A stretch of 64,000 nucleotides of DNA, taken from NCBI GenBank assembly GCA_965262615.1, contig OZ253545.1:768001-832000 (forward strand), written 5' to 3'. Position numbers and translations under genes: made by a program. How positions within the stretch are numbered: position 1 is the stretch's first letter; each line of letters opens with the position of its first letter. The DNA is from Alphaproteobacteria bacterium (lineage in GTDB: Bacteria > Pseudomonadota > Alphaproteobacteria > GM7ARS4 > G965262615). A model generated the notes under the pieces. The model was not told the DNA's origin. It saw only the letters and a program-made list of their open reading frames with translations, and searched no databases. Below are positions 916 through 62,349 of this stretch, one piece after another.

Positions 916-1560
916 TTATTTGATATATCCCTGGGCAATTAAAATAGTGACAGTAATGCCCCCAAACCACATCAAGATGTTTACTTTGCCTGTGAGAACT
1001 TGCATCTTTGTGTCCAAAGATTGAATTGATTTGATGACATCTGACATAGTCCAGACCTCTGAAGAAATGAGAGACTCCACATCGGCTCCACCAAGCTCTG
1101 TTTTGCCTTGAAGGGGACCCGAATAGCGTTTTATGCTGGGTTTTGCCAATCTGTGTATTTCCAAAGTGAGAAAGTCTTCTTTGAAGGTAAAGGTGACGCG
1201 GCGGGAAGTTGGGTTGACAATCCTAGCAAACAATCTGCCGTGAAAACCTGGATCAATTTGTGCACCTGTTGTGGCATAAATTCCTTTTCTGGCAAGACCA
1301 GAGGTCAGATCAAAACGAGCGGCGTGGCTCTGATTGATTGCGATTATTTCATGAGTGCCGATAATGGCAGAGTCACCAGCCTCAACAATGATAAAACCTT
1401 TTTCAGAAATATCTTCTATTTTCTTTCCTTGAATGGTTGCTCCCTGTTTGCCCACGCGCAAATCGTAGGATGCGGGCTGCAATTGCCTGTCTTCATAATC
1501 AGAAATCTCAATCCCGCCATTATCAAGAGCTTCTTTAATCCCTTTGTCTGACAAAATCAT
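916..1560 (-). CDS. dCTP deaminase/dUTPase-fold protein with C-terminal coiled coil and hydrophobic helix (copy 1)
   Basis: MILSD..., QPASYDLRVG, TSGLARKG, IDPGFHG and YSGP match the Dcd family. C-terminus is ILMWFGGITVTILIA. Confidence 0.75.
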   Translation of the reverse strand: MILSDKGIKEALDNGGIEISDYEDRQLQPASYDLRVGKQGATIQGKKIEDISEKGFIIVEAGDSAIIGTHEIIAINQSHAARFDLTSGLARKGIYATTGAQIDPGFHGRLFARIVNPTSRRVTFTFKEDFLTLEIHRLAKPSIKRYSGPLQGKTELGGADVESLISSEVWTMSDVIKSIQSLDTKMQVLTGKVNILMWFGGITVTILIAQGYIK

Positions 1561-1595
1561 TGCGGCACCCTCTTTTGTTGATGCAATGTTCTTTT

Positions 1596-1624
1596 AATAT
1601 ACTATTTTTTGCTTGGTCTTACAA
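1596..1624 (-). promoter_or_regulatory. sigma70-like promoter of Dcd-like copy 1
   Basis: TTGTAA-N17-TATATT on the minus strand, about 35 bp upstream of the ATG. Conserved in copy 2. Confidence 0.55.
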
Positions 1625-1689
1625 GAATGAACGGAAATTACTTTGAAGACGGTTTGTCCCGTTGTTCAAAAAGAGGTTCGCTGACCGCA
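1598..1689. repeat. Direct repeat of 2423..2514, part of an 825-bp tandem duplication
   Basis: Near-identical ~92 bp TATACTATTTTTTGCTTGGTCTTACAAGAATGAACGG...GTTCGCTGACCGCA. The 825-bp offset equals the offset of the two Dcd-like ORFs. Confidence 0.9.
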
Positions 1690-1740
1690 TTTTTTAATCT
1701 TTTTTCAGCTGCGATAACTCATATAAAACTTCGTTTTGTT

Positions 1741-2385
1741 TTATCTGAAAGATGCCATAATTCCCATCAAAGCGAGCATGACAGGAAAAAGCCACATCAA
1801 CATTTTTACTTGAATTGCGAGCTCTCGCACCTCTCTGCTGGAAGATTGAACCGATTTGATGATGTCTGGCACAGTCCATACCTCTGAAGAAAAGAAATGC
1901 TCCACATCACCTCCATCAAACTCCGTTTTGCCTTGATAGGGACCCGAATAAGGCTTTGTGCTGGGTTCTAACAATTGGTGTATTTCCAAAGTGAGAAAGT
2001 CCTGTTTGAAGGTGAAGGTGACGGGATGAGGCATCAAATTGGTAATGCCAACAAACAATCTGCCGTGATACCCCGGGTCCACTTGTGTGCCTGTTGTGGC
2101 ATAAATTCCTCTTCTGGCATGACCAGAGGTCAGACCAAAACGAGCCGCGTGACTCGCATCCATTCTGATGACCTCATGAGTGCTGAGAAGGGCAGAGTCA
2201 CCAGCCTCAACAACGATAAAACCTCGTTCAGAAATATCTTCTATTTTCTTCCCCTTAAGAGTTGCCACCTGCCTGCCAACGCGCAAATCGTAGGACGCCG
2301 GCTGCAACTGCTTGTCCTCATAACCAGAGATCTCAATCCCTTTATCCCTGAGAGCTTGTTTGATTCCGTTGTCCGATAAAACCAT
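1741..2385 (-). CDS. dCTP deaminase/dUTPase-fold protein with C-terminal coiled coil and hydrophobic helix (copy 2)
   Basis: 214-aa paralogue of 916..1560 with QPASYDLRVG, TSGHARRG, VDPGYHG and YSGPYQG. C-terminus is MLMWLFPVMLALMGIMA. Confidence 0.75.
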   Translation of the reverse strand: MVLSDNGIKQALRDKGIEISGYEDKQLQPASYDLRVGRQVATLKGKKIEDISERGFIVVEAGDSALLSTHEVIRMDASHAARFGLTSGHARRGIYATTGTQVDPGYHGRLFVGITNLMPHPVTFTFKQDFLTLEIHQLLEPSTKPYSGPYQGKTEFDGGDVEHFFSSEVWTVPDIIKSVQSSSREVRELAIQVKMLMWLFPVMLALMGIMASFR

Positions 2386-7990: not shown

Positions 7991-8175
7991 GATTAATTCC
8001 CTTCGTCAGTGTGTGTTGTTTGTTGCAGAGAGCGTCACCATTCCTCAAGATAAGATGAAAAATGAACCAGCACAAGAGAAAGGCGGGGGAATTCTTTGAA
8101 GATGCCATGGACTTTTTAATTGATTGCAGTTACAATCAAAATCTTATTTCGTTGGAAACATGAAGGAGGCTGGAT

Positions 8176-9534
8176 ATGAAATGCAAAATTAAGGATTGGG
8201 AAATAGGCGAGTTTGACAGTCGCAAACATAAGATAAATTTTGATCCCCCATATCAAAGAACTGAGAAGGCTTGGGATGAAAAAATGCAACAGTTGTTGAT
8301 TGACTCCATCATCAATGGCTATGACATCCCTAAGATTTATCTCCACAAATTAGCGGATGGTGGGTACGATGTTATTGATGGCAAGCAACGCCTAACGGCT
8401 ATATTTCGCTTTCTTAACAATGAATTTGGACTTGCCATTGCTAAGGGGAAAAATAATGGCTTTGAACTGACTGCGCCGTCTTTAAATGATTTTGAAGCCC
8501 GAGACCCTGAGCAAGGGAATATTTTTGATGATTTATCAACAGCATGGCGCGATAAAATCATGGATTTTTCTGTTACAGTAACCATTGTTAGTGATGCTGA
8601 TGAACTGGAAGTTAAAGGCTTTTTTGCTCGCTTGAACAAAGGGAAACAAGTTAATAATACAGAGCTCAGGCGTTCAATTGGCGGGACTCTTATGAATTCA
8701 ATTAAAAGGCTGGCAAAGGATGATTTCTTCACAAAGAAAACGAAATTGTCCAATGACAGATTGATGATGGAAGATATTGCCACTAAATTTATTCTGATTG
8801 AAGATCTTGCCAATTTTTCTCATCCAGAACACAAACCGTATCAGGATTTGAAAAGGGAAGATCTTGATAAAGTTGTTAGACGCTACAAACAAGAAGAGGA
8901 TAGCCAAAAAGTCAAAACATTGGAAAAAATTAAAACATTGGAAAAAATGGCAAAATCCAATCTTCAAGTAATGAAAGATGTATTTGAAGATAATTCGCCC
9001 CTATTGGCACAAAGCTCTATTCAGCTTTATTATCTCTTTATAAGAAAAATAAAGCTTGAATATGGTCACGAAAATTTGAAAGGCTTGCTCAAGTCCTTTT
9101 TAGAGGATTTTGAGGTTGAGCGTCTGCTTGTAAGAGCCAAAACGAAAAGTGATGATGTTAAACCCGTAAATTTGAATGAGGAAGAATTGTTTCGGGAACA
9201 TAGAATACGGCGATTTATTTTAGACCAATCTAAATCCAACGATAAGAAAAGCTTGGAGCGACGAGTAGATACTCTGACAGGCTTTTTCATTGAAAAACAT
9301 CCTGATGTTTTTGTTGTTGTTCGCAAAGATGAAAAGAGGCTTTTTACAAAGGATGAAAGGTTTATCATTTTTAAGCTGAGTGGTGGAAAATGTGCCAATT
9401 GTGGAAAAATATTTAAGGATTTTTCCGACTTTGATGCTGACCATGTCATTTCATGGGCAAAGGGGGGTCCCACCACCATCGCCAATGCCCAAGCTTTGTG
9501 CAAAAGTTGCAACAGAAGCAAAGGCGCGCGCTAA
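8176..9534 (+). CDS. DUF262 (ParB-like) + C-terminal HNH endonuclease, GmrSD-like
   Basis: PPYQR..W, IDGKQRL and FARLNKG (DUF262); CANC...DADHV..GG.T..NAQALCKSCN (Zn-HNH). AT-rich, with AGGAGG RBS. Confidence 0.85.
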   Translation: MKCKIKDWEIGEFDSRKHKINFDPPYQRTEKAWDEKMQQLLIDSIINGYDIPKIYLHKLADGGYDVIDGKQRLTAIFRFLNNEFGLAIAKGKNNGFELTAPSLNDFEARDPEQGNIFDDLSTAWRDKIMDFSVTVTIVSDADELEVKGFFARLNKGKQVNNTELRRSIGGTLMNSIKRLAKDDFFTKKTKLSNDRLMMEDIATKFILIEDLANFSHPEHKPYQDLKREDLDKVVRRYKQEEDSQKVKTLEKIKTLEKMAKSNLQVMKDVFEDNSPLLAQSSIQLYYLFIRKIKLEYGHENLKGLLKSFLEDFEVERLLVRAKTKSDDVKPVNLNEEELFREHRIRRFILDQSKSNDKKSLERRVDTLTGFFIEKHPDVFVVVRKDEKRLFTKDERFIIFKLSGGKCANCGKIFKDFSDFDADHVISWAKGGPTTIANAQALCKSCNRSKGAR

Positions 9535-9584
9535 AAATCATTTTCCCCTTGGCATGATGCCGCGGTTCATTACAATACGGCATT

Positions 9585-9968
9585 ATGGGTGCATTTGGTG
9601 AAGATTTGAGGCGGCTTCATCCCGCTGATTTCAGCATCACTTTTGAGGATGTGGTGAAGCGGTTTCGTGCGGCACTGCTGGCTCAAAAGGTTGAGCTGCC
9701 CAACAAAAATGACCATGACAGGGATGAATTGCGGTGTGAGACTCATCACGCCATTCTTGATTGGGTCAATAGCAACCCAGACATAAGCCCCAGCTTTGTT
9801 GTGGGCAAAACGCCCGAGCTGTATTCAAGGGATTGCTGGCATCACCTAGACGAGATGCGAGAAACCACCATCTTCTTACTGGCTGAACATGTGCTGGTTG
9901 ATGCTCTGCACTATGAATTGATTGAATGGCTTGCCAATGGCGAGATGCCCATCACTCACACATCGTGA
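9585..9968 (+). CDS. Hypothetical protein (127 aa)
   Basis: ORF fills the gap between the HNH gene and folD. No recognised motif. Confidence 0.5.
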
Positions 9969-10822
9969 ATTAGTTTTGCGGCTTTCAATGTATTATGGAG
10001 TAGACAGGCGATGGTCATGGGACCGACGCCGCCGGGCACGGGGGTGATGAATTTCGCGCGCTTCACCGCCTCATCAAAATTCACATCTCCCACGAGGCGT
10101 TTTTTGCCATTTTCTTCAATGCGATTGATTCCCACATCCAACACACACGCGCCCTCTTTGATCCAATCGCCCCGCACCATGCGTGGTCTGCCCACGGCTG
10201 CCACCAGAATATCGGCGGAGCGACACAACTCGGGCAAATCGCGCGTGCGGGAATGGGCAATGGTGACGGTCGCCGATTCTTTCAGCAACAACGCCGCCAT
10301 CGGTTTGCCCACAATGTTGGAGCGTCCCACGATGACGGCATTCTTGCCGCTGAGATCCCCCAGTGCATCCTTTGCCATCATCCAGCATCCCAGAGGCGTG
10401 CACGGAATCAAGCCCTCCAAGCCGCTCCACAGACGACCGGTATTGACGGGATGAAAGCCATCAACATCCTTATCCGCCACAATGGTATTCAAAACCAACG
10501 CCTCATCAATATGAGAGGGCAACGGCAACTGCACCAAAATACCATGCACACCTGCATCATCATTGAGACTTTGCACAAGGGCGAGCAGTGTTTTCTCATC
10601 GGTGTCATCGGGCAGACGATGCTCAAAGGAGTTCATGCCCGCCTGTTTTGTCTCCCGCACCTTGTTACGCACATAGACTTCGCTGGCGGGATTCTCTCCC
10701 ACCAGCACCACCGCCAAACCGGGCGTGATGCCATGCTTTTTGTGCAACGCGCCCACTTCCGTGCCCACCGTATCACACAGCGAGCGGGCAATCTGTTTGC
10801 CATCAATAATGGTGGCACTCAT
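9956..10822 (-). CDS. folD: Bifunctional methylene-THF dehydrogenase/cyclohydrolase
   Basis: [31 protein letters not shown] and [13 protein letters not shown]. Confidence 0.97.
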
Positions 10823-11112
10823 GGCATCATTCCTTGCATGAGGGCAGCATAGAGCAGGTCGCGCACAAAAACAATCACAATCACCGCCGCCACAGGGCTG
10901 ATATCAACGCCATTGATGAGCGGAATGGCGCGCCGAAACGGTGATAAAATCCCATCACCCAGACGACACAGCACATCACACAGCTGGTATAAAAAACGGA
11001 CTTCATCAACCACCCGTGATAGCAACAGCCAGTGCGCCAAAACCGATAAAATCACCACCCACAAGGCAAGAGATAAAATCGTATCAACCATATGGAAGAG
11101 AGCCAGCATCAT
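10819..11112 (-). CDS. yggT: YggT family membrane protein
   Basis: PFRRAIP..GVDISP motif, directly upstream of folD as in many alphaproteobacteria. Confidence 0.85.
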
Positions 11113-11157
11113 GTGTTATGTTGTAGTTTGAGTTGGCTCATCAAGCAAGAGACCACG

Positions 11158-11577
11158 ATGACGCAAAATCACTATTACGACCTCTTTATCAAAGACCTCA
11201 CCGTCTCCACCTGCATCGGCGTCAATGAGGACGAGCAGGGCGCGCCGCAGCGTCTTGTCATCACCATTCACATGCTGGCACACGATGAATGCACCCACAG
11301 CAACGACCAATTGGCGCGCGTGGTGTGTTATAATTCGGTGGTGGAGGATATGCACCAATTGCTTGCCCGCCGTGCTCAGCGTGGCTTGCTAGAGACATTG
11401 GCGGCGGAGATGATGGATCATATTTTGCAAGATGAGCGCATTGTGGCGGTGCGATTGCGTTTGGAGAAGCCCGATGTGCGCCCCGATGCGCGAGCGGTGG
11501 GAATTGCGTGCCATCGCATCAAGCCTCATGTGGATGAGGCACTGTGCCATCGGTTGTGGGCGAGTCATCGTGGGTGA
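11158..11577 (+). CDS. folB: Dihydroneopterin aldolase
   Basis: IGVNEDE..PQRL, VCY, LLETLA and RLEKP motifs. Confidence 0.85.
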   Translation: MTQNHYYDLFIKDLTVSTCIGVNEDEQGAPQRLVITIHMLAHDECTHSNDQLARVVCYNSVVEDMHQLLARRAQRGLLETLAAEMMDHILQDERIVAVRLRLEKPDVRPDARAVGIACHRIKPHVDEALCHRLWASHRG

Positions 11578-12235
11578 TGCGTGGATTATCAAAATTGGCG
11601 GCTCGCTGGCATCCCATCGCTTGCTGACGGCATGGCTGACGGCATCATGCACGGCGGCACGGGTGCGTCCTGTGGTGATTGTCGCGGGAGGCGGCGTGTT
11701 TGCCCGTGCCTTTCAGCCTCTGCAACAGACCCACGCCATCTCTATGGAGGATAGCCATCACCTTGCCATCGCTGCCACCGAACTCTATGGACAATTTTTG
11801 ACGGTGCTCAATCCCATCATCAAGAAGGCGCGCAACCGAGACGAGATGATGCAAGCCGCGGTGGAAAAGCGTCCTGCATTGTTGTTGCCTTCCGAGTTAT
11901 TGCGTCAGCACTCCATGCCTCCTCATTGGCAGGTGACTTCCGACTCCATTGCCGCATTGTGTGCTCGCTATGTGGAGGCGGCGGCGTTGTTTTTTGTCAA
12001 AGCGCGCGCTGCGCCCGGCAAACGGGTTTCTCTGGCTCAATTGCAGAGTGACCAATTGCTGGATCGCGGTGTGAGTTTGCACGCGCCATCGGTGTGTTCT
12101 TGGATGTGTCTGTGTGTGGATGATGTCAATCACTGTTCCGCTTTGGCAACGGGGGATGGACAAGAAGCCGCAAGCGTTGCATCCGTCATTGATACTGACC
12201 ATTATCTTGAGTGGCAGGAGATGAATGATGGCTAA
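11570..12235 (+). CDS. Amino-acid-kinase family protein, MfnE/Orf21-like (methanofuran pathway)
   Basis: IIKIGGSL, VAGGGVFA, SHHLAI and HWQVTSDSIAA, in H4MPT/methanofuran cluster context. GTG start at 11570. Confidence 0.75.
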   Translation: MGDAWIIKIGGSLASHRLLTAWLTASCTAARVRPVVIVAGGGVFARAFQPLQQTHAISMEDSHHLAIAATELYGQFLTVLNPIIKKARNRDEMMQAAVEKRPALLLPSELLRQHSMPPHWQVTSDSIAALCARYVEAAALFFVKARAAPGKRVSLAQLQSDQLLDRGVSLHAPSVCSWMCLCVDDVNHCSALATGDGQEAASVASVIDTDHYLEWQEMNDG

Positions 12236-12773
12236 AACACAGCAGCAGCGATGGGCATGGGCACTCACGGGCTCGGGGCATTTTTTTCAAGAGACATTTG
12301 AGATTATTGCCTCATTGCCTGAGGTGGATGTGTTCATGAGTCCTGCCGCCGATGAATTGCTGTCCATGTATCGGGTGCGTGACAGTCTGCCGTCTCATGT
12401 GCGAATTTTTCGCGACTCCACTGCGTCTGCCGTGCCTGTGGGGCGGTTTTATGAAAATCTCTATCACACATTGGTGATGGCGCCCGTCTCTAGTAATACT
12501 GTTGCCAAATGTGTGTATGGCATATCGGATTCATTGGTGAGCAATGTTTTTGCTCAGGCGGGCAAGTGTCGTGTGGAGTGTGTGGTGTTTCCTTGTGACA
12601 CGGCACAAGAATTGATATCGGCGGCGCCCAAAGGAGATGTGACCGTTTATCCGCGCGCCATTGACCTTGATAATGTGACGCGCCTGCAGGCGTTTGAACG
12701 CACGCGAGTGGCATTGTCATTTGCGAATTTTCGTCAATTGATTGCGCACCGGGCAGATGAGATGGCATCATGA
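12225..12773 (+). CDS. Archaeal-type flavoprotein AfpA / dihydromethanopterin reductase (DmrB-like)
   Basis: WALTGSGH, APVSSNTVAKCVYGISDSL, AQAGKCRV and YPRAIDL. Confidence 0.8.
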   Translation: MMAKTQQQRWAWALTGSGHFFQETFEIIASLPEVDVFMSPAADELLSMYRVRDSLPSHVRIFRDSTASAVPVGRFYENLYHTLVMAPVSSNTVAKCVYGISDSLVSNVFAQAGKCRVECVVFPCDTAQELISAAPKGDVTVYPRAIDLDNVTRLQAFERTRVALSFANFRQLIAHRADEMAS

Positions 12774-14116
12774 GCAAGAATCGTTTTCTTTTTCTCACGG
12801 GGCATCTGGTGCATGAGCCACTGTGTGCATTGGCTGAGCGGCTGCCTGATGACGAATTCATGTGGGAGGTGCGAGATATGGGGGTGCAGGTGGCATCGCT
12901 CATGACCAATAGTGTCATCAAGAGACGCTTGACCGACCTTGATGATGTGTCTCACATCATGCTGCCGGGCTTGATGCGCGGTGAGACGGAAGAGCTGCGT
13001 CAGCATTTTGGCGTGACGGTGGTGCGCGGTCCCGATGATTTTCGTGACATTCCGCAGTGGCTGGGTGCGCCGCCGCCTGTGGTTGATTTGGGAGAGCATG
13101 ACTGTCTTATTTTTGCGGAAATCACCGATGCGCCATTGCTTGCGCCGCAGGACATTCTTGCCACGGCTCGTGTCTTTGCGGCACAGGGTGCTGATGTCAT
13201 TGATGTGGGGTGCTTGCCTGATGTTGCCTTTGACCATTTGGAAAGCGTCATTGCGCTGTTGTGCGATGATGGACACACGGTGAGCATTGATTCGGCTGAT
13301 TATGATGACCTGAGGCGCGGCGTGGCGGCGGGGGCATCGTATATTTTGAGCCTGCATGAAGGCACGGTGGCAAAAGCTCATGAGGATGGGCTGATTCCCC
13401 AAGCCACGCCCATTCTCATTCCCCAAGCGGGGGAGGATATGGATTCTCTTGAGCGCGCCATTGCGTGGTGTCATGCGCGCACGATTGAGTGTCTTGCCGA
13501 CCCTATTCTGACGCCTCTGCCACAGGGGTTGATGAATTCGTTGGTGCGTTATCATCAATTGCGGCAGCGTCATGAGTCAGTTCCCATCTTTATGGGAGTT
13601 GGCAATGTGACGGAGCTGCACGATGCCGATTCTGCGGGTGTGGTGTCACTGTTGATGGGGGTGGCTGCCGAATTGAATGTGGCGGGCGTGTTGATGGTGG
13701 CGGTGAGTCCTCACTGTCGGCGCGCCATTGCTGAGGCGGACAGAGCCCGCCGTATTCATCATTATGCCCGCCGTCATCAGTGTCTGTCCGTGCGCATTGA
13801 TGACGGACTCATGGCGTTGCACGATAAAAAACCCGCATGGCAAGAGCCTCATGCCATTGAGGCGATGGCGAAAAAAATTACCGACCCCAACTATCGCATC
13901 ATGCTGAGCTCGGAGGGCATTCATGTGTTTAACCGAGACATTTACATTGTGGCACAAAGCGTGGATGATGCCTTTGACCAGCTGCAGATGAGCTTCGACC
14001 TCTCTCATGCTTATTATATGGGCGTGCAATTGGCGCGAGCGGAAATAGCGTGGCGGCTTGGCAAAAATTATCAGCAGGATCAAGACCTTCACTGGGGCGT
14101 GGCGGTGTCATCATGA
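12770..14116 (+). CDS. Dihydropteroate-synthase-like protein (Orf20 of H4MPT biosynthesis)
   Basis: FLTGHL, VQVASLMT, IFAEI.DAP, GADVIDVG, SIDS, DPIL.P, GNVTEL.DADS and HAYYMG..LARAEIAW.LGK.Y.QD. Confidence 0.85.
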   Translation: MSKNRFLFLTGHLVHEPLCALAERLPDDEFMWEVRDMGVQVASLMTNSVIKRRLTDLDDVSHIMLPGLMRGETEELRQHFGVTVVRGPDDFRDIPQWLGAPPPVVDLGEHDCLIFAEITDAPLLAPQDILATARVFAAQGADVIDVGCLPDVAFDHLESVIALLCDDGHTVSIDSADYDDLRRGVAAGASYILSLHEGTVAKAHEDGLIPQATPILIPQAGEDMDSLERAIAWCHARTIECLADPILTPLPQGLMNSLVRYHQLRQRHESVPIFMGVGNVTELHDADSAGVVSLLMGVAAELNVAGVLMVAVSPHCRRAIAEADRARRIHHYARRHQCLSVRIDDGLMALHDKKPAWQEPHAIEAMAKKITDPNYRIMLSSEGIHVFNRDIYIVAQSVDDAFDQLQMSFDLSHAYYMGVQLARAEIAWRLGKNYQQDQDLHWGVAVSS

Positions 14117-14703
14117 GTTGTATTTTTGAGGGCATTGTCACCACGCTGGACGATGACGCATCGCCCTATCACGCGCCCTTTGGCATTGTGATGGAACAAT
14201 CCCTTGTGCGGATTGCGCCGTTTCGTCCGTCTCGCAGTTTGGATTTTTTGCTCACCAGACGGTGCGCCGTTTTTAACATGACCGACCATCCGTTGATTTT
14301 TGCGGGATGTTTGACGGGGCGTAAAATATTTGATGTCACCCCCGCCGTCACCATTGAGGGGTTTGGGCTCGCCGCCGCCGTCAGACGTTTGGAATTGCAA
14401 TTGGAAAATGTGGTGGAGGATGAGACGCGTCCCAAGTTATTTTTTCGCATTCGCCATGAGACAAAAGGTGCGGCATGGGAGGGGCATCATCGGGGGCGGG
14501 CGGCGATTATTGAGGCATGCGTCTTACTATCACGCCTGCATATTCTGCCGTCTCAACAGGTTGAGGACACCATGCACCGCCTCGCCGACATCGTGCAGCG
14601 CACCGCAGGCAAGGAAGAAAAGACCGCATGGCAATGGCTGGAAGCGCATCATCAACAATGGAAAGAAAAACATGGCTCGGTTGCTGGTCAGTGTGCAAAA
14701 TAA
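14113..14703 (+). CDS. DUF447 family protein (Orf19 of H4MPT clusters)
   Basis: FEGIVTT, APFG, APFRPS and AIIEACVLLSRLHIL. ATGA overlap with the previous stop. Confidence 0.8.
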   Translation: MSCIFEGIVTTLDDDASPYHAPFGIVMEQSLVRIAPFRPSRSLDFLLTRRCAVFNMTDHPLIFAGCLTGRKIFDVTPAVTIEGFGLAAAVRRLELQLENVVEDETRPKLFFRIRHETKGAAWEGHHRGRAAIIEACVLLSRLHILPSQQVEDTMHRLADIVQRTAGKEEKTAWQWLEAHHQQWKEKHGSVAGQCAK

Positions 14704-15415
14704 ACACGAAGCCGTCATGGCTCATGAGGCGGGGGTTGTCATGATTGATGCCAAAGATGCGGCGCGTGGCAGCTTTGCCCCTTGTGACCTCACCACCTTG
14801 CAAGACATCGCGCGCGTCTGTCCCCATGCCACCTTGAGCGCGGCGTTGGGACCATGTTTTTCTCAAGATGAAGTCAATTCTTGTCGGCAGCTGGAGCTTG
14901 AGGTGGCACAGAAGGAAACATTTTCCTTTGGCAAAATCGCCTATGATGATTCGTTTAATGAGTGCATGACATCGGCTGTATCGTCATCATCATCCTTGCG
15001 GCGCATTGCGTTGGTGTGTGTGGATTGCGTCTCATCATCTCGTGATGAAGAATTTGTCATCCACGCCCATCGGCACGGCTTTGCGGGGGTGATGATGGAC
15101 ACATGGCACAAAAATCATGGTGACTTGTTGCGGCATCGCTCCCTTGAGCAATTGCGTCATTTTATCGCCGCCGCGCATGGGTTGGGTCTTTTGTGTGGTT
15201 TGGCGGGAGGATTGTCATCGCCGCAGTTGATTTTTTTGGCGCGTCACACCGCAGTGGATTATGTGGGGACACGCGGGGGCGTTTGTGAAGGGACGCGCGA
15301 GGGCATCATTGATGCGCCGCGCGTGGCATCCTTGAACAAACAAATCAATGAAACGGCGGGAGCTGCCCCATTGATGGCGGCACCATCGCCACAGGACGCA
15401 CTCACCTCGTCATGA
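14672..15415 (+). CDS. mfnB: (5-formylfuran-3-yl)methyl phosphate synthase (MfnB/Orf22)
   Basis: LLVSV, IDAK..RGS, SAALG, GKI, MMDT..K, CGLAGGL and YVGTRG (DUF556 TIM barrel with conserved lysines). Confidence 0.75.
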   Translation: MARLLVSVQNKHEAVMAHEAGVVMIDAKDAARGSFAPCDLTTLQDIARVCPHATLSAALGPCFSQDEVNSCRQLELEVAQKETFSFGKIAYDDSFNECMTSAVSSSSSLRRIALVCVDCVSSSRDEEFVIHAHRHGFAGVMMDTWHKNHGDLLRHRSLEQLRHFIAAAHGLGLLCGLAGGLSSPQLIFLARHTAVDYVGTRGGVCEGTREGIIDAPRVASLNKQINETAGAAPLMAAPSPQDALTSS

Positions 15416-16332
15416 AATGAGCGATAGCGACACTTCAAATCGTCCGCCACCTCGCGAATGAGAAAATCCCCAATGCCACACCCCACAATGACGCTGTTGT
15501 CTTTGAGCAGTGGATGCAGGCATTGCTTGATGTCATTTTTGCACAGTTCCTTGAATGCGTGTGCCAGTGCAAGGGCATCTTCGTGAGTGACGGCGGCGGC
15601 ATCACACCCCACCATGCGAAGCATGCGCCGAATGCTGTCTTGCTGAGTTTTGGGCTTGCCATCGCAGGTGTCCCATTGGTCGTATTCTTCGGGCAGTGTG
15701 CCCAGAATGCGAAAAACATCGGCGGTGGTGGCAAAGTGTTCCGCCATCAACGAAATGGTCTCCCCGCGCCACGCAATGTGGGATGCCAGAGCCATCAGAG
15801 GTGTGCGAATGACACCGCGATAAACAAGCAACTTGCGCCGCAGGCGATCAAAATCACTGAGAGGAGCGTTGTCATGAAGGGGATGGCAATCGGTGGTGGT
15901 GCTGCCGCAATCCACCATCACGGTGGAAGGATTCTGTGCAAAGCGATGGCGAAGCCAGCTCATCGTGGCGTGCCAATTCATTGAGGCAATACAATCGGGC
16001 GAGATCGTGTCATCGCTGCTGACAAATCCCTTGTCACTGGCATAGATTAAAAGCGGCTGCACCATCTGTGTCATTTGTTTGATAATTTGCCTCACGCCCT
16101 CATGGCGTGAGGCAAAGCAATCTGCCATCTCGCCGCTCATGGTGAGCAAGTGGGTGGCGGATTGGTCATCGTCCCATTGTTGCAACAGGGGTTTGACGGT
16201 GCTGGTGAGCAGAGCGGCATCGCGCCACAGGGCACAGGGATATTGCGCCGCATGCAATGTGTCGTCATGTTTGTGCCAGCGCGCCACTTTGATGTGCGCA
16301 CCGCCGATGTCCCATGCGATGAGGCTGGTCAT
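15259..16332 (-). CDS. Hydantoinase/oxoprolinase-family H4MPT-linked protein (MfnF/Orf9-like)
   Basis: WDIGGAHIK, TMSGEMADCF...EGV, ASMNWHA, DCGSTTTD, GVIRTP and AEHFAT.AD. Confidence 0.85.
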   Translation of the reverse strand: MTSLIAWDIGGAHIKVARWHKHDDTLHAAQYPCALWRDAALLTSTVKPLLQQWDDDQSATHLLTMSGEMADCFASRHEGVRQIIKQMTQMVQPLLIYASDKGFVSSDDTISPDCIASMNWHATMSWLRHRFAQNPSTVMVDCGSTTTDCHPLHDNAPLSDFDRLRRKLLVYRGVIRTPLMALASHIAWRGETISLMAEHFATTADVFRILGTLPEEYDQWDTCDGKPKTQQDSIRRMLRMVGCDAAAVTHEDALALAHAFKELCKNDIKQCLHPLLKDNSVIVGCGIGDFLIREVADDLKCRYRSFHDEVSASCGDGAAINGAAPAVSLICLFKDATRGASMMPSRVPSQTPPRVPT

Positions 16333-17249
16333 GTGAGGTAGAGCCTCGCCCAATCGGGCGGCAAATCAACAATTGAAGTGGTGATGCGGGCATTGATATC
16401 CGCCACCCACCATCGCTCGTCTTGTTCAATCACATCCACCCCCACCATGCCACTGAGCGGCATGACCGCTCCCATCGTGCGTGCCAGTTGCTCGCCTTTG
16501 GCGCGTGCCTCATCATCACCGATGGCGACATCAATGGTTTGCAGAGTCATGCGTCCTTGTCCATCGGTCACCATGTGCTGGCGATTGACGGCAAGACAGG
16601 TGACGCGTTCCGCACCATAAAACAATGAAAGACTCAATGTGTCCCCCGCCATGAAGGGTGTGGCAATCCAATGGACATGATCATCGGCATCGTGCGGCGG
16701 GCGAAACGCGCGGCAATCACGGTCGCTCACATGAACATTAAAAAGACACCCCGCGCCGTCATCAGGCTTGATGACCCACCCCGCAGCGTTTGGTCGTGAG
16801 GGCAGTGCGTACACATCATAGACGGGAATCATATCAAGGTGGGCTGAGAGGTGTTTATAGCTGCGCTTTTTGCTACTGGCAATATTGATGGATGTCTTAT
16901 CACTGAGCCACAGACGACAAGAGGCGGGTGCAATATCGCAACATGAGAGCAGCGCGCCATCGGTCTCTGGCGCAATGGGCAACAGGGCATCATACTGATG
17001 GCAATGCTTGCGCCATTGCTCAAAAGGATTGTCATCGTGAATCATGACGGCGGCATCTTCATGAGCAGGATGCGGCGGCAGGCGATCATCACGGCTATAG
17101 CCGAGCGTGATGTCGTGCTGGCGAAATTCACGCAGCAGCGCGCCCAGCATGGCATCGCCCTCGGCAAGCAAGGATGGCGGCACGAGCTCTTGTCTCATGC
17201 CGCCGCCCCCCACATACTCCACGATGAAGAGTTTTGTCGGTTTTGTCAT
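16329..17249 (-). CDS. ATP-grasp ligase, MfnD/Orf1-like (tyramine-glutamate ligase family)
   Basis: EYVGGGG, LLAEGDAM, IAPETDG, KPDDGAG, SLSL, VNRQ, GMVGVD and DINARITTS. Confidence 0.8.
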   Translation of the reverse strand: MTKPTKLFIVEYVGGGGMRQELVPPSLLAEGDAMLGALLREFRQHDITLGYSRDDRLPPHPAHEDAAVMIHDDNPFEQWRKHCHQYDALLPIAPETDGALLSCCDIAPASCRLWLSDKTSINIASSKKRSYKHLSAHLDMIPVYDVYALPSRPNAAGWVIKPDDGAGCLFNVHVSDRDCRAFRPPHDADDHVHWIATPFMAGDTLSLSLFYGAERVTCLAVNRQHMVTDGQGRMTLQTIDVAIGDDEARAKGEQLARTMGAVMPLSGMVGVDVIEQDERWWVADINARITTSIVDLPPDWARLYLT

Positions 17250-17260
17250 TGGAGAAATCA

Positions 17261-17965
17261 TTGACGCACTTTAACAGAGAGGATTTTTTTGTGGTAGCGG
17301 TGCTGGACGCGCGTCATCGCTGTGTGGTCAAGGCGAATGCGGCGCGTGGGCGGGGCGGATACTATCCATTGCGCCATCATGCTATTGCCTTGCCCACCAC
17401 CGAACGGGTGGTGGATTATTTTCACAAAATGGGAATCAGGAAATTTTATCTTGCCGAATTGACCATGATTCGCGATGGCATCACGCGCCGCCAAGCTTCT
17501 GCGGTCATGCGTCTGGCGCGCCGTCTCCGACATTGCGAATTTTGGCTGGACGGCGGATTTCGTGTCTGGCAGGATGCTCGTTATTTTTTGCCGCAGCGCA
17601 ACATTCATATCATCGCCGCCAGTGAGACTTTGCGCGCCATGCGTCAGTATGATGTGCTACGGCGCATGTTTGGCACGCGGCTCATTGTGTCACTGGACTA
17701 TGAAGCCCATGGACGCTTGCGCGGTCTGGATGCCTTGCGTCTTGCCTCATCCGTGTGGTGGAAACAGCGAGTGATTGTCATGGCATTAAGATTGATTGGC
17801 ACAGCCCGTGGCATGAAATCATCGCCTCTTTGCACATTGCGCGTGCATGGACGCTCTGTGATCCTCATTCAAGGCGGCGGTGTGCGATGCGCGCAAGATG
17901 TGGATTTTCTCAAAACGCACAACGCCAAAGGCGCACTCATCGCCAGTGCATTGTATGAAACATAA
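17261..17965 (+). CDS. HisA/HisF-related TIM-barrel protein (Orf17-like), divergent
   Basis: VLD...VV, WLDGG, ASETL, VSLD, VIVMAL..IG, GGGVR and GALIASALY. TTG start with GGAG RBS. Confidence 0.7.
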   Translation: MTHFNREDFFVVAVLDARHRCVVKANAARGRGGYYPLRHHAIALPTTERVVDYFHKMGIRKFYLAELTMIRDGITRRQASAVMRLARRLRHCEFWLDGGFRVWQDARYFLPQRNIHIIAASETLRAMRQYDVLRRMFGTRLIVSLDYEAHGRLRGLDALRLASSVWWKQRVIVMALRLIGTARGMKSSPLCTLRVHGRSVILIQGGGVRCAQDVDFLKTHNAKGALIASALYET

Positions 17966-18119
17966 TATTTCTTTTGCTGTTATCTTGACACTCTTTTCTT
18001 TTATTACATAATGATTTTGCAGGTGGTTCGCTTCTCAAGGCTGGGATGTCCGACACCTGCCAATTTGTTGTGAACGGTGCATGATTTTTTTTGAAACGGA
18101 ACGGTTCATCGCCGAAAGG

Positions 18120-30124: not shown

Positions 30125-31273
30125 TTATATCAGTTTCAGTTTCAATTTCAAATATTCCATGCCGCGATCGCCTTTGATGCGATTACAATTGCCACAGAGC
30201 AATTGAAGGTTTTCAATGTGATCCGTGCCGCCTTTTTTTCGTGCGATGATATGATCCACTTCGAACTGGCGCAATTCAAAATGCTCATTGCACCCGGCAC
30301 AATTGCCAGCTTGTGCGCCATACAGTGTCTTGGCATGGCTGCGAGGCGGCGGCAGTTTTCCCATATCGGTGCGCTGCGGAATGTCGGTGCGATGAGCTCC
30401 TTTATAAAAGATCCCCACTTCCTTTTTCATGCGTTGTTTCACGAGCTCGGCGGCTTTGGGTGATATATCTATGCCGACCCATTGTCGCTCTTCCAGTTCG
30501 GCGGCAATGCAGGCGGTGGCACAGCCACAGAACGGATCAAGCACAAGATCGCCATTATTGCTACTGGCAGTGATGATGCGTTTCAGCAAGGCAAGAGGCT
30601 TTTGTGTCGGATATCCCGTGCGTTCTTTAGCTTGAGTATTGATAGATGGTATATCCTCCCACCAATCACGAGGCAGACGACCACTCTCATCATCTTTCCA
30701 GCCACTTTTCTCGCCAAAGACCAGAATCTTTTTTTGATTGAAGACAAAATTGGCACTTTTACAATATCTAAAAATGATATCATGTTTTCGTTTGAAGTCT
30801 CCTTTGGTATTGCTCCCACCCCATTTATAGCACCAAACAATCTCATTCCTAAAATTTTTACGACCGAATATGGCATCCATGAGCAATTTGAGGTAGTGGG
30901 ACATGGTGGGGTCACAGTGCAGATAAATGCTTCCTGTTGGTTTCAATACCCGATGCATCTCCAACAAGCGCGCCGCCATGTATACGAGATAGGATTTGTC
31001 ATTGGATGTCATTGTTGCCAGCAATACACGATAGAGGGCTGGATGTTTCGCCTCAATGAGGTTAATCCACTCAACATCAATATCACTGAGAGCCCATGTA
31101 TCTTTAAATTCCGCGCCCGCCGCCTCCGACCCTATGGGAGCGGCATAGTTGGCATTTGAGTTGAATGGTGGGTCTAGGTAAATGAGGTCAACGCATTCAG
31201 AGTTCATGCCTCGCAGGATGAACAGATTATCGGATGTCCATATGGTTTGGCTGGCGAAATTTGGCTCGTTCAT
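30125..31273 (-). CDS. Beta-class N6A/N4C DNA methyltransferase fused to a C-terminal HNH endonuclease
   Basis: YLDPPFNS (motif IV), YPTQKP and VLDPFCGC (motif I), then CAGC...DHI...GG.D...[10 protein letters not shown]. Confidence 0.88.
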
Positions 31274-44705: not shown

Positions 44706-45662
44706 ATGATGGCAAAAGCAACGAAACTGGCTCTGGTGGGAGCGGGGCAGATTGGTGGCACACTGGCGCACTTGGCGGCGCAGGATGTGTTTGATGAGAT
44801 TGCCCTTTATGACATCGCGGGGGATATGGCGCGCGGCAAGGCATTGGATTTGATGCAAGCCGGCGCGGTGGAAGGTTTTGAGGCACACATTCACGGCGGC
44901 GATGAGGATTCTTTGGTGCGTGATGCCGATGTGGTGATTGTCACTTCGGGCTTGCCGCGCAAACCCGGCATGAGCCGCGATGATTTGATTGAAAGCAATT
45001 GTGCCATCATCAAAAAAGTGGGGGCGTTGATTAAGACGCAATCCCCCAAGGCGTTTGTGATTGTGGTGACCAATCCGTTGGATGTGATGGTGTGGGTGAT
45101 GCGGCAGGTGACGGGTTTTCCTCATGCACGAGTTGTGGGCATGGCGGGCGTTTTGGACTCGGCGCGTTTTGCTCATTTTTTGAGCGCAGCTCTGGGCATC
45201 GCCAAGAATGATATTTCCTGCACGGTGCTAGGCGGGCATGGTGATTTGATGGTGCCCCTCATCGGTTATTCATCGGCTGGGGGTGTCTCGCTGGATGAAT
45301 GGGTGCACAGCGGGCGGTTGCCACAGGATGTTTTGGATGGCATCATTGAACGCACGCGCGGCGGCGGCGGTGAGATTGTCAAACTGCTGGGGACCGGTTC
45401 GGCGTTTTATGCGCCCGCAGCATCGGCGTTGCGCATGGCGCGAGCGTTTGTCCGAGACGAAAAACGCCTGCTCACCGCGGCGGCATGGCTAAGAGATGCT
45501 TATGGCGAGCGCGATGTTTATGCCGGCGTTCCGGTTACAATTGGTGCGGGTGGCGTTGAGCAAATCGTCCAGCTGAGCCTCAGTGACACGGAGCAAGCGG
45601 CATTCAAACAATCGGTGGCGGCGGTGCGAGAATTAGTTGCCGTTGCCGAAAAAATGATATAA
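44706..45662 (+). CDS. mdh: Malate dehydrogenase (LDH-like)
   Basis: GAGQIGG, PRKPGMSRDDL, LDSARF, GGHGD and GSAFYAPA. Confidence 0.96.
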   Translation: MMAKATKLALVGAGQIGGTLAHLAAQDVFDEIALYDIAGDMARGKALDLMQAGAVEGFEAHIHGGDEDSLVRDADVVIVTSGLPRKPGMSRDDLIESNCAIIKKVGALIKTQSPKAFVIVVTNPLDVMVWVMRQVTGFPHARVVGMAGVLDSARFAHFLSAALGIAKNDISCTVLGGHGDLMVPLIGYSSAGGVSLDEWVHSGRLPQDVLDGIIERTRGGGGEIVKLLGTGSAFYAPAASALRMARAFVRDEKRLLTAAAWLRDAYGERDVYAGVPVTIGAGGVEQIVQLSLSDTEQAAFKQSVAAVRELVAVAEKMI

Positions 45663-45674
45663 AAAGGATTCATC

Positions 45675-46838
45675 ATGACTGTTATTACCAGACCCGCTAT
45701 TGAAGTAACGCAGGGCAGATACAAATTGTATCTGACATCCTTTACTGCCGAGCATTTTAACATGGCTGATTTTTATGATGTTAAGAAATTAAATATTGAC
45801 GCAGAAGGTGGCTATCAAAGAGGTTTGCAAGAAACGCGCGTCAAAAGGTTTGTTACAGACATTGTCCGAGCCTCTCACGATTCGAGGGCAGCTACCGAAG
45901 ATAATAATTTCGGGTCGTGCTTTTATCCCACATCGGTTTTTTTGACAACAGAACATGATGTGAAATATGACGATGAGAAGAGAGAAATATTATTTGACAC
46001 AAGCATTTGTCCTTTCAACATTGTGGATGGTCAGCATCGTGTGGAGGCTTTGCGGAAAGCCAGTAACGGGAATACCGCTTTGGATGATTTTCCCATGCCC
46101 GTCACACTGGCAACCAACCTCAAGGAAGTGGAACAAATGCTTCAATTTTTGATTGTGAATAGCCAACAAAAGAAGGTTGAAAAAGGAGTGGAGCAACACA
46201 TTTATGCGCGTTTATGCGATATGCAAACACTTAAACCAATGCCTTTTTTGCCAGGAGTGGTGGAAAGAGAAGTAGGAAAGGGCTTATATCGTGAGTGTTT
46301 TGACATTGTCAAATTTCTGAATAATGAAGAAACTTCTCCTTGGAAAGGAAAAATTGTCATGGCTGATGATGACCCTAAAAAGAAAGGTGTTAAACAAGCT
46401 GCGTTTGTGGGTAGTTTGAAAAGGTATATTTTTGCCCAAGGCAACCTTTTGCATGAGAAAAAGGATGATATTCGTTATGTGAAAAATTTTCTTTTGAACT
46501 ACTGGATCGCTTTAACCGAATTCGCATCTCGGGACATTCGTATTGAGTCTGATTCAAATATTTTCAAAACAAATGGACTAAACTTTTTTCATGAAATTTC
46601 TAGCCTTTTTGCAGAAAAGTGCTTGAATAATGATGATGCGACAGTCCCCACAATTAGAGGATATTTTGAGGGGGTGAACGACTGTGCGTTGGAATTGGGA
46701 AATGAAAAGGTGGTAAAATTGATGGCATCTGCAAATTGGGCGAAAGGTGGTGAATTTGGTAAATTGAATCTAGGGGGCATTAGGGGCAAGGCTAGTGAAT
46801 ATAGTGCAATTTTTAAGAGTTGGGATTTAGGATTCTAG
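45675..46838 (+). CDS. DGQHR-domain (DndB/ParB-like) protein
   Basis: GYQR, PTSVFL, IVDGQHR and F..VN.QQK.V; AT-rich insert. Confidence 0.85.
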   Translation: MTVITRPAIEVTQGRYKLYLTSFTAEHFNMADFYDVKKLNIDAEGGYQRGLQETRVKRFVTDIVRASHDSRAATEDNNFGSCFYPTSVFLTTEHDVKYDDEKREILFDTSICPFNIVDGQHRVEALRKASNGNTALDDFPMPVTLATNLKEVEQMLQFLIVNSQQKKVEKGVEQHIYARLCDMQTLKPMPFLPGVVEREVGKGLYRECFDIVKFLNNEETSPWKGKIVMADDDPKKKGVKQAAFVGSLKRYIFAQGNLLHEKKDDIRYVKNFLLNYWIALTEFASRDIRIESDSNIFKTNGLNFFHEISSLFAEKCLNNDDATVPTIRGYFEGVNDCALELGNEKVVKLMASANWAKGGEFGKLNLGGIRGKASEYSAIFKSWDLGF

Positions 46839-46854
46839 GCAGTGAGCTCAACCT

Positions 46855-47196
46855 TTGAATATTGCTAATTTAACCCCTCAAGTTGAGCACAAAGTATCCT
46901 TTAGTGGCAGAGAGCTTTTGTCCGTTCCTAAAGAGGCGGGTTGCTATGTGCTGACCAATTTTAGTGGTGAGATTTTTTATATTGGTAGGGCTAAAGATTT
47001 GTGCAGACGCATGGCACAGCATTTAGAAAATCCAAAGATGAGACAGCGAATTACTGCAGGCAAGGCAACTCAATTCCACTATCGCTTGTGTGAGGTCAAA
47101 GAGCTTCCCTATCTTGAAAGAGGCTGGATGAACGAGTATAGAATGAATAATGGTGGCAGGTTGCCCCCTTTTAATGAGGTGGATGCTGCCATCTAA
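46855..47196 (+). CDS. GIY-YIG nuclease family protein
   Basis: GCY...FYIG...DL.RR..QH...LE...LPPFN; TTG start is uncertain. Confidence 0.8.
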   Translation: MNIANLTPQVEHKVSFSGRELLSVPKEAGCYVLTNFSGEIFYIGRAKDLCRRMAQHLENPKMRQRITAGKATQFHYRLCEVKELPYLERGWMNEYRMNNGGRLPPFNEVDAAI

Positions 47197-47223
47197 GATT
47201 TTGCCATCTAATTGGAGGTTTTT

Positions 47224-48393
47224 ATGAATGTTCATGAATATCAGGCGAAACGCCTGCTTGGTCAGTTTGATGTTCCCACGCCTGTTGGGGATGTTGCTTA
47301 CAACACGCATGAGGCGGAGCGCATTGCCAATTGGCTTGATGAGGATGTGATGGTGGTGAAGGCTCAGATTCATGCTGGGGGGCGTGGTTTGGGCGGTGGT
47401 GTCAAGGTGGTGAAATCGGTGGCGGATGTGGTGAAGTCTGCCGATGCCATGTTTGGCATGATGCTCAAAACTCCGCAAACGCCGCCTGAGGGCAAGAAAG
47501 TGCGGCGCGTTTATATTGAAAAGGGGGTTAATATAGACAAGGAGATTTATTTTTGCGTTGTGGTCAATAGGGCAACGGGCGGGGTGGACATCATCGCCAG
47601 CAAGGAAGGCGGCATGGACATTGAGGAAATCGCTCAAAAGAAACCCAAGTCAATCATGAAGGTGTCGTTGCCTGCGGGGGCGCGTCTTGCCTCGCACCAT
47701 GTGCGCCGTCTGTGCTACGGGCTGGGGCTCGGCGGACGCTTGGGACGCAAGGCACAAAAAACCATGCTGAATATTTGGCGCGCCTATGACAATCTGGATG
47801 CCTCCATGCTGGAGATCAATCCACTGGTCACCACCAAAGAGGAGGAGGTCTTTGCTCTGGACTGCAAGGCGGACTTTGACGACAATGCTCTGTTTCGTCA
47901 ACGGCGGGTGGAAGAAATGCGTGATGATGACGAAATGGACCCCCTTGAGCTGGAAGCCGCGCGTCACAATCTCAACTATGTGAAGCTGAACGGCAGCATT
48001 GGGCTCATGGTCAATGGCGCGGGACTCTCAATGGCAACGATGGACATCATTGAGAGCATGGGGGGCAAGGCGGCAAACTTCATGGATGTGGCAGGAGCGG
48101 CAACCTCGGAGCGTGTCGCCGCCGCATTCAAACTGATTTATCGCGATGCCGATGTCAAAGGTATTCTCATCAACATTTTTGGCGGCATGATGCGCTGCAA
48201 CTCCATCGCCGAAGGCTTGGTCGCCGCCGCCGGCGAGGTGGGGCTGGAGAAACCGCTGGTGGTGCGTCTGGAGGGAACAAATGTGGATTTGGGACGCAAA
48301 ATCCTCAAGGACTCGCCCTATCCCATAGAACCAGTCGCCACCATGTACGAGGCGGCGGAGAAAATCGTGAACGCCGTCAAAAAAGGAGGCTGA
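47224..48393 (+). CDS. sucC: Succinyl-CoA synthetase beta subunit
   Basis: [31 protein letters not shown] and RLEGTN; GGAGG RBS. Confidence 0.9.
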
Positions 48394-48394
48394 C

Positions 48395-61166: not shown

Positions 61167-61190
61167 TTTCTCCTGCTCGTGTTATCTACG

Positions 61191-61219
61191 AATATAATAT
61201 CAAAATTTGTCCTTTGCAA
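61191..61219 (-). promoter_or_regulatory. sigma70-like promoter of Panacea TA copy 1
   Basis: TTGCAA-N17-TATATT; the same hexamers occur at 62321..62349. Confidence 0.55.
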
Positions 61220-61267
61220 CAACGGTGGGCAAAGATGGTGCTGTGAAGCGATTTGAAAATCAAGGTT

Positions 61268-62295: not shown

Positions 62296-62320
62296 TATTA
62301 TGTCTCCTGTGTTATCTACG

Positions 62321-62349
62321 AATATAATATCAGCGAGTGTGTTTTGCAA
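62321..62349 (-). promoter_or_regulatory. sigma70-like promoter of Panacea TA copy 2
   Basis: TTGCAA-N17-TATATT just past the tRNA 3' end. Confidence 0.55.

Follow-up and report, generated by a model that had tools for sequence, protein, structure and literature searches.

Nine adjacent genes of an uncultured alphaproteobacterium (assembly GCA_965262615.1, contig OZ253545.1) resemble those for the synthesis of two archaeal-type cofactors, tetrahydromethanopterin (H4MPT) and methylofuran, and the enzymes known to use these cofactors are not encoded beside them. For what purpose, then, are the cofactors made? The genes, from folB to orf17, occupy positions 11158-17965 of the window, by which is meant the whole stretch of 64,000 nucleotides that was analysed, bases 768,001-832,000 of a single-contig closed genome of 1,542,258 bases (estimated 98.3% complete). 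An earlier note on this DNA had proposed a cryptic C1 metabolism with the enzymes encoded elsewhere or, failing that, a repurposed pterin/furan pathway or a role in cross-feeding. Our analysis indicated that the block is very probably the cofactor-supply half of standard H4MPT/methylofuran-dependent formaldehyde oxidation, in an organism whose genes predict ordinary methylotrophy linked to a lanthanide-type XoxF methanol dehydrogenase.

Cofactor genes and cofactor-using enzymes in the same genome

The open reading frames (ORFs) of the window were scanned against Pfam and NCBIfam with curated cut-offs, and none of them proved to be a fae, mtd, mch, fhc or mptG gene, in agreement with the earlier note. 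The canonical set is indeed encoded elsewhere: a second block (genome positions 1,476,633-1,488,102), separated from the cluster by about 0.69 Mb, contains fhcC, fhcD, fhcA and fhcB (-), a pterin-4a-carbinolamine dehydratase gene, mptG, mtdB, an orfY/myfA-like gene, mch, orf5, orf7 and fae. Fae (238 bits) and Mch (378 bits), whose genes lie at 1.485-1.488 Mb, exceeded their curated cut-offs, as did FhcC, FhcD and FhcA; FhcB is full length and scored 149.5 bits, under its cut-off of 327.8. MptG scored 128 bits, below the equivalog cut-off (with TIGR00144 at 105.6 bits against 113.5), Orf5 (MptN-like/MyfB) scored 150.6 bits, below 350, and Orf7, a member of the CitG family, scored 178.8 bits. 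MtdB was identified by its Mpt_N domain (104 bits), and because the genome has one Mpt_N dehydrogenase, it has no MtdA. The OrfY/MyfA-like protein was identified from just two things, an ATP-grasp_3 match (27.2 bits) and the position of its gene between mtdB and mch.

Taken together, the two blocks encode all of the oxidation enzymes (Fae, MtdB, Mch and FhcABCD), the H4MPT biosynthesis set (mptG, orf20, orf19, orf7 and a reductase of the AfpA/DmrB type) and the methylofuran set (orf22, orf21, orf9, an orfY-like gene, orf5 and orf17), of which only Orf9 exceeded its cut-off (TIGR03123). Every gene that the earlier note had proposed to look for across the genome (mptG, fae, mtdB, mch, fhcABCD, orf5, orf7, orfY and xoxF) is present, orfY in the form of an OrfY-like ATP-grasp gene. 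A complete canonical pathway in the same genome removes the grounds for calling this C1 metabolism cryptic, and it leaves the outcome that the earlier note had itself foreseen in that event, either ordinary methylotrophy or detoxification.

The methanol-oxidising end of the pathway is encoded close to the cluster. The xoxF gene (genome positions 759,703-761,373) is located upstream of folB at a distance of about 18 kb and is followed immediately by a gene for an xoxG-type methanol-metabolism cytochrome c and then by xoxJ (MoxJ_2). Its product belongs to the pyrroloquinoline quinone (PQQ)-dependent methanol/ethanol dehydrogenase family (TIGR03075, 673.8 bits), and its best solved relatives are the lanthanide-dependent XoxF 6oc5 (E 7.8e-250) and 6dam. 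In this alignment D-Y-D is paired with D-F-D, so that the extra Asp two residues past the catalytic Asp is present, in a D-x-D motif that we take to be the lanthanide signature of XoxF. The genome also encodes PqqC, a formate dehydrogenase alpha subunit (over its cut-off) and formate-tetrahydrofolate ligase (FtfL). Fae, XoxF, PqqC, formate dehydrogenase, FtfL and a CitE-like lyase were each found in all five small genomes that were compared, namely that of the window (G000), three relatives of the same order with genomes of 1.4-1.8 Mb (G001-G003) and a 1.6-Mb genome of the same class (G011). In G001, G003 and G011, too, the distance between xoxF and the cluster is no more than about 15 kb.

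As for carbon assimilation, the gene for the CitE/malyl-CoA-lyase-like protein lies together with a xerD-like recombinase gene and a second sucC/sucD-like pair at G000:C1:21373-25381. The window has its own mdh-sucCD genes at 44706-49273, and the second pair, whose malate-CoA ligase score was under the cut-off, may encode the malate thiokinase of the serine cycle. Ribulose-bisphosphate carboxylase (RuBisCO) was found in none of the five genomes, with positive controls. No match to the ammonia/methane monooxygenase family (PF02461, pmoA) was obtained in the genome, with a control that was itself silent (0/14 genomes), so that absence of this family is not established.

All nine genes of the cluster that the earlier note had named are present and intact, on the strands that it had assigned to them (Table 1). 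Start codons were chosen from the start-codon context and from the points at which alignments with orthologs begin; in the case of orf21, the aligned part starts at residue 51-52 of the longer reading frame. Six plus-strand genes, in the order folB-orf21-afp-orf20-orf19-orf22, overlap or abut one another (8, 11, 4, 4 and 32 nt) and converge on orf9 and orf1 on the minus strand, which overlap by 4 nt, and orf17 diverges from orf1. By this arrangement, folB-orf22 and orf1-orf9 are predicted to be two translationally coupled units. The converging 3' ends of orf22 and orf9 overlap by 157 nt (15259-15415). A mis-called stop codon was considered as the source of this overlap and dropped, since both frames are intact in a strain of about 96% identity and similar overlaps are found in relatives (171 nt in G001, 67 nt in G003 and 50 nt in G011).

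Table 1. Genes of the cofactor cluster and of its borders, with positions in the window
Feature	Position	Strand	Likely start	Family matches and remarks
folD	9956..10822	-		methylene-tetrahydrofolate dehydrogenase/cyclohydrolase; PRK14188 465 bits, over cut-off; conserved neighbour, folate branch, not in the cofactor operon
YggT gene	just upstream of folB, beside folD	-		neighbour
folB	11158..11577	+	ATG 11158	dihydroneopterin aldolase; PF02152 74.1 bits (cut-off 31.8); TIGR00526 65.4 bits (cut-off 45.05)
orf21	11570..12235	+	GTG 11570	MfnE-like kinase; NF040622 MfnE 66.7 bits, E 2.2e-18 (cut-off 300, archaeal)
afp/dmrB	12225..12773	+	ATG 12225 or 12228	FMN flavoprotein of the AfpA/DmrB type; PF02441 73.8 bits
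orf20	12770..14116	+	ATG 12770	dihydropteroate-synthase-like; DUF6513 68.5 bits, pterin-binding domain and DUF4346; TIGR00284 179.2 bits (cut-off 256.65)
orf19	14113..14703	+	ATG 14113	DUF447 protein; DUF447_N 53.5 bits, DUF447_C 55 bits, both over cut-off
orf22/mfnB	14672..15415	+	ATG 14672	4-(hydroxymethyl)-2-furancarboxaldehyde-phosphate synthase homolog; PF04476 124.1 bits (cut-off 22.4)
orf9/mfnF homolog	15259..16332	-	ATG 16332	TIGR03123 274.5 bits (cut-off 244.1); MfnF 152.6 bits
orf1	16329..17261	-	ATG 17261 or 17249	MfnD-like ATP-grasp ligase; preATP-grasp_3 and ATP-grasp_3; MfnD_Meth 61.7 bits (cut-off 400)
orf17	17291..17965	+	GTG 17291	HisA/HisF family; PF00977 48.8 bits; TIGR00734 HisA/F-related 41.4 bits
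ankyrin-repeat gene	18120..19823	-		567 aa, about 12 repeats; 43% G+C against about 54% around; between orf17 and egtB, at the right edge of the cluster

Three of the cluster proteins had matches among solved structures. The only match of Afp was the "putative dihydromethanopterin reductase (AfpA)" 3wis/4mwg (E 9.4e-48, residues 8-176). Orf19 matched 3b5m (E 3.2e-12), and MfnB/Orf22 matched MJ1099, 4rc1 (E 3.1e-8). In the alignment of MfnB with 4rc1, I-D-A-K pairs with I-D-V-K and M-D-T-W-H-K with L-D-T-A-I-K, and the part where a third such lysine would be expected aligns poorly; the Asp-x-Lys near the N-terminus, with its Schiff-base lysine, and a later Asp are presumably catalytic, residue roles that we carry over from work on Methanocaldococcus jannaschii.

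Several observations weigh against the reading of the block as the supply half of a working methylotrophic pathway. Six of the nine cluster proteins (MfnE, Afp, Orf20, MfnB, MfnD and Orf17) scored below curated, mostly archaeal, equivalog cut-offs, and their names therefore rest on homology and conserved gene context; against the archaeal equivalogs, the scores were 108 bits versus 297 for MfnB, 67 versus 300 for MfnE, 62 versus 400 for MfnD and 153 versus 520 for MfnF. A tyrosine decarboxylase of the MfnA type (PF00282) had no match in the genome, and among the five genomes only G002 has one. No assignable MfnC transaminase was found either, and the furan/tyramine branch is therefore incomplete on paper. 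According to the available text of PMC8141765, three of six characterised strains with tyramine-type methylofuran also have no MfnA. The serine cycle was traced through one marker region of the genome (the lyase and the second sucCD-like pair). Furthermore, none of the 12 sequencing runs that hold part of the stretch is recorded as RNA, and methanol use by this uncultured organism is a prediction from its genes.

Predicted working of the module and competing explanations

The presence, intactness, family membership and linkage of the genes were read directly from the genome; the enzymatic steps below are predicted from homology and the literature, and expression and substrate are presumed. The roles of Orf22, Orf21, Orf9, OrfY, Orf5, Orf17 and orf1 in methylofuran synthesis follow Hemmann et al. 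2021 (PMC8141765), as described in the part of that article that was available.

On the pterin side, FolB would act with FolK, encoded elsewhere (genome position 861,033), to yield activated hydroxymethyl-dihydropterin, which would serve both folate and H4MPT synthesis. Orf20, the probable enzyme condensing the pterin with ribofuranosylaminobenzene phosphate (RFAP), Orf19 and the distantly encoded MptG would then build the methanopterin skeleton; the roles of Orf20 and Orf19 are suggested by family membership and general background. Afp/DmrB would carry out the last reduction, from dihydro- to tetrahydromethanopterin. Genes of the DHFR family (DHFR_1) were found in none of the five small genomes, with controls positive in 10 of 14, and a DmrA-type enzyme is therefore excluded, which leaves a reductase of the AfpA/DmrB type.

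On the furan side, Orf22/MfnB and Orf21/MfnE would provide the activated aminomethyl-furan, with Orf21, judging from homology, making the furan-methanol diphosphate F1-PP. Orf1, a probable MfnD-like glutamate ligase, and Orf9/MfnF would join the F1-PP furan to a glutamyl-tyramine or glutamyl-tyrosine unit, and MyfA (OrfY-like) and MyfB (Orf5) of the second block would lengthen the polyglutamate tail. Orf17 probably acts at an early step of methylofuran synthesis, for which it is required in Methylorubrum extorquens (PMC8141765, in its available part). The presence of an MfnD-like orf1 hints at a tyramine-type methylofuran, by analogy with the correlations given in the accessible text of that article, and with no MfnA found in this genome the tyramine would come from some other source.

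With both cofactors supplied, XoxF, a PQQ-containing enzyme of the lanthanide type, would oxidise methanol to formaldehyde, Fae would load the formaldehyde on H4MPT, MtdB and Mch would oxidise it, and Fhc would transfer the product to methylofuran and hydrolyse it to formate. Formate would be converted to CO2 by formate dehydrogenase, or to methylene-tetrahydrofolate by FtfL and FolD, probably for assimilation via the serine cycle.

The folB gene is the sole FolB-family gene of the genome (a single match in a genome-wide search), and the idea that it might be an H4MPT-specific paralog was dropped on this ground. Its position at the head of the H4MPT/methylofuran operon, together with the lack of a DHFR-family reductase, suggests a further reading, in which folate supply in a reduced lineage of sponge-associated appearance would be transcriptionally slaved to the C1-cofactor operon and tyramine for a tyramine-type methylofuran would come from the host or a co-symbiont. 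We regard this combination as unlikely; if it were true, host-derived tyramine would make a methanol-oxidising symbiont metabolically dependent on its host.

A pteridine-reductase-like short-chain dehydrogenase/reductase is encoded between xoxFGJ and the window (G000:C1:764732-765529, minus strand; PRK09134 277 bits, cut-off 281), and it may stand in for dihydrofolate reductase.

It has been proposed for Burkholderia and Planctomycetes that the same genes and cofactors solely detoxify formaldehyde, and the organism studied here could likewise be a heterotroph equipped with such a safety valve against formaldehyde arising in the cell or in host tissue, for example from demethylations. A small genome of host-associated appearance, an assimilation route seen only in part and the purely genetic evidence for methanol use would all suit this explanation. 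Nevertheless, a dedicated XoxF-XoxG-XoxJ module stands 18 kb from the cluster and is linked to it in G001, G003 and G011 too, and genomes of 1.4-1.8 Mb have kept PQQ synthesis, formate dehydrogenase, FtfL with FolD, the malyl-CoA-lyase-like gene and the second sucCD-like pair. Detoxification as the sole function consequently appears quite improbable. It is scarcely credible that the cofactor genes serve to cross-feed a partner or to make a repurposed pterin/furan product, independently of the resident H4MPT pathway. Nothing other than the physical separation of cofactor and enzyme genes favours this idea, and such a split into several islands is normal in methylotrophs (PMC3615186, in the text available). 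The Pfam and NCBIfam scans revealed neither an exporter nor an additional tailoring gene within the cluster and, as the genome has intact genes for Fae, MtdB, Mch and FhcABCD, every known consumer of both cofactors is present and the idea loses its premise.

Conservation, strain variation and neighbouring genes

The interpretation of the block as a methylotrophic cofactor module was examined further by comparison with related genomes and with other loci. Among 40 relatives, Orf9 was found in all three same-order genomes, and in the 37 other genomes of the same class it gave one strong match (G011), one weak match and 35 negative results. By tblastn, the gene order in G001 and G003 equals that of the window, reading folD, yggT, folB-orf21-afp-orf20-orf19-orf22, orf9-orf1, orf17 and egtB; the order in G002 is nearly the same, with no afp match in the locus, and G011 carries the core from folB to orf9. 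The earlier note had remarked that the block abuts folate genes, and folD is indeed a neighbour here and adjoins the cluster in G001, G002 and G003. In G001 (C3:109709-110743) the match to Orf9 falls into two parts, covering model positions 1-47 and 54-299, of a single open frame of 478 aa.

The wider distribution was studied through orf20. A first locus search with one sequence gave 41 pattern matches, none of which was confirmed, and an alignment of five proteins was used instead; it yielded at least 80 named loci, and 27 of the 80 listed span less than 15 kb. Orf20 of the window is 42-49% identical to orthologs in these loci, which include Methylobacter, Methylotuvimicrobium, Methylocucumis, Hyphomicrobium, Methyloceanibacter and Methylophilus, and further Methylobacillus, Methyloversatilis, Variovorax, Paraburkholderia and Caballeronia. 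Near orf20 in the 80 listed loci were found orf19 (in 64, where it adjoins orf20), afp and orf22 (58 each), folB and orf21 (16 each), orf9 (14), orf17 (8) and orf1 (6). Among the same listed loci, folB and orf21 share a strand in seven, with folB immediately upstream, the full nine-gene arrangement occurs in one, an Alphaproteobacteria record (L107), and a near-complete arrangement is found in four records of uncultured marine Alphaproteobacteria (L128, L140, L148 and L178).

A phylogeny of Orf20, which the earlier note had called for, was computed from 85 sequences as a quick maximum-likelihood tree (LG+G4, SH-aLRT support only, drawn with midpoint rooting and no outgroup). The window sequence grouped with G003 and G001 (support 90, not starred) and loosely with G002 and a clade of G011 and marine sequences, and the class labels were strongly clustered over the tree (5 changes, where shuffled labels gave a mean of 33.3). 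The terminal branch of the window sequence is the longest of the 85 (0.84 against a median of 0.11). The tree fits vertical inheritance in a fast-evolving lineage, the placement of so long a branch in a quick tree being uncertain. The impression that the sequences are strongly diverged is partly correct, judging from this branch length and from the identity that Orf20 retains with its orthologs in classical methylotrophs. The assignment to the Alphaproteobacteria agrees with UvrB, whose closest matches are only 61-66% identical and come from Alphaproteobacteria records nearly throughout, two being titled Flavobacteriaceae.

Parts of the stretch are held by 12 sequencing runs from five coded studies, and four of these were compared over positions 8000-22000. 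Runs that hold small shares (X8-X12) were left out, and parts of X4, X5 and X7 that no contig covers (8000-9400, for instance) were given no weight unless the X5 contig itself spans them or departs there. One of the four (X1) is 98-100% identical to the window and may be the very source of its sequence, so that it does not constitute independent evidence. In X5, labelled marine metagenome, a 25.7-kb contig aligns with 9493-18061 at about 96% identity (349 differing letters, 23 gaps) and resumes at 19882; its insertions and deletions in the cluster all preserve the reading frame (orf20 has +3 nt, orf9 has +12 nt, and orf22 and orf17 have single-base changes of +1 and -1 that pair up within 15 nt). 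A run labelled sponge metagenome (X7) has contigs over several cluster genes at about 93-96% identity. The pathway genes are conserved across strains, and the flanking slots are variable. On the right, 740 other letters replace the ankyrin gene region (18062-19881) in the X5 contig, and no ankyrin gene separates orf17 from egtB in G001 and G003; the gene is a strain-variable insertion encoding a eukaryote-like repeat protein, outside the pathway. On the left, the X5 contig departs left of 9493, at a gene with GmrSD_N and HNH nuclease domains (8176-9534, plus strand) that forms an islet of 40% G+C beside folD, in a window whose G+C content runs from about 40 to 57%.

The earlier note had also taken the organism to be symbiotic. 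The ankyrin-repeat protein, the type III secretion genes found in the genome (HpaP-like and YscO, G000:C1:630415-631799, minus strand, about 3 kb downstream of ftfL and hslVU) and the 93-96% identical contigs in the sponge-labelled run make such a lifestyle plausible and do not prove it.

Other features of the window were recorded alongside the cluster. Directly after it are located egtB (TIGR03440, 530 bits) and egtD (Methyltransf_33, 347 bits), for ergothioneine synthesis, at 19964-22227 (plus strand), and in G001 and G003, too, egtB borders the cluster on its right. Two tandem dCTP-deaminase-like genes (916-2385, minus strand; 214 aa each) scored 82.9 and 88.1 bits with TIGR02274 (cut-off 92.8) and could possibly form a nucleotide-depletion defence pair. 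Islets of low G+C content contain an M78 peptidase (IrrE-like) gene paired with a DUF4411 gene (22281-23920, plus strand) and two genes with SocA/Panacea antitoxin domains (60573-62352, minus strand), and a DNA methylase-HNH fusion is encoded at 30125-31273.

Relation to known methylotrophs and archaea

The locus does not hold an orphan archaeal-type cofactor pathway; it appears to be a standard methylotroph module for which all of the enzymes are encoded. Genomes of only 1.4-1.8 Mb keep about 20 H4MPT/methylofuran genes in addition to XoxF, PQQ synthesis and formate dehydrogenase, and such retention argues that methanol/formaldehyde oxidation is central to the lifestyle, probably inside sponges. 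With its naturally reduced gene set, the locus could provide a small reference for assigning Orf17, Orf19, the MfnC-like transaminase and the steps that provide tyramine.

The same families (orf19, orf20, afpA, orf21, orf22, orf9, orf1 and orf17) make up the islands of proteobacterial methylotrophs such as Methylorubrum extorquens, Methylobacillus flagellatus and Methylosinus trichosporium OB3b, as far as these are described in the available parts of PMC8141765 and PMC3615186. These organisms also share the second island, with fhcCDAB, mptG, mtdB, orfY, mch, orf5, orf7 and fae, and the same split over multiple islands. The order orf19-orf20-afpA-orf21-orf22 of strain OB3b compares with folB-orf21-afp-orf20-orf19-orf22 here, and the OB3b genome, according to the text of PMC3615186 that was available, is without dmrA, like the present genome, which has no DmrA/DHFR-family gene. 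AfpA/DmrB is regarded as an alternative dihydromethanopterin reductase (PMC6193120, available part). In contrast to the classical islands, folB leads the operon here as the sole folB, there is a single Mpt_N dehydrogenase, and the genome measures 1.54 Mb.

Homologs of MfnB, MfnD, MfnE and MfnF of Methanocaldococcus jannaschii, of its dihydropteroate-synthase-like protein, of the DmrX/AfpA flavoprotein and of its HisA/F-related protein are present in the genome, but the scores are far under the archaeal equivalog cut-offs and no MfnA was found in G000 (PF00282). Bacteria make methylofuran in place of the methanofuran of that archaeon, and MyfA and MyfB add its polyglutamate tail (PMC8141765, in its available part); the pathway runs in the oxidative direction.

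A close parallel is provided by Candidatus Methylospongiales, sponge-associated Alphaproteobacteria known from Lamellodysidea metagenomes (Podell et al. 2020, PMC7313196). The accessible text of that study describes genomes of 1.59 and 1.83 Mb with 52-53% G+C, complete oxidation dependent on dephospho-tetrahydromethanopterin (dH4MPT) and type III secretion, and it already proposes that methanol/formaldehyde oxidation is central in that sponge lineage. The same text is silent on xoxF, on how the cofactor cluster is laid out and on its link with folB. The genome studied here resembles them in its size of 1.54 Mb, the same pathway, its HpaP/YscO genes and near-identical DNA in a sponge-labelled run, a likeness of features and not an assignment to that order. 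In conclusion, the cluster is a known methylotroph module, and small sponge-associated Alphaproteobacteria with the dH4MPT pathway are, by the available part of PMC7313196, already in print.

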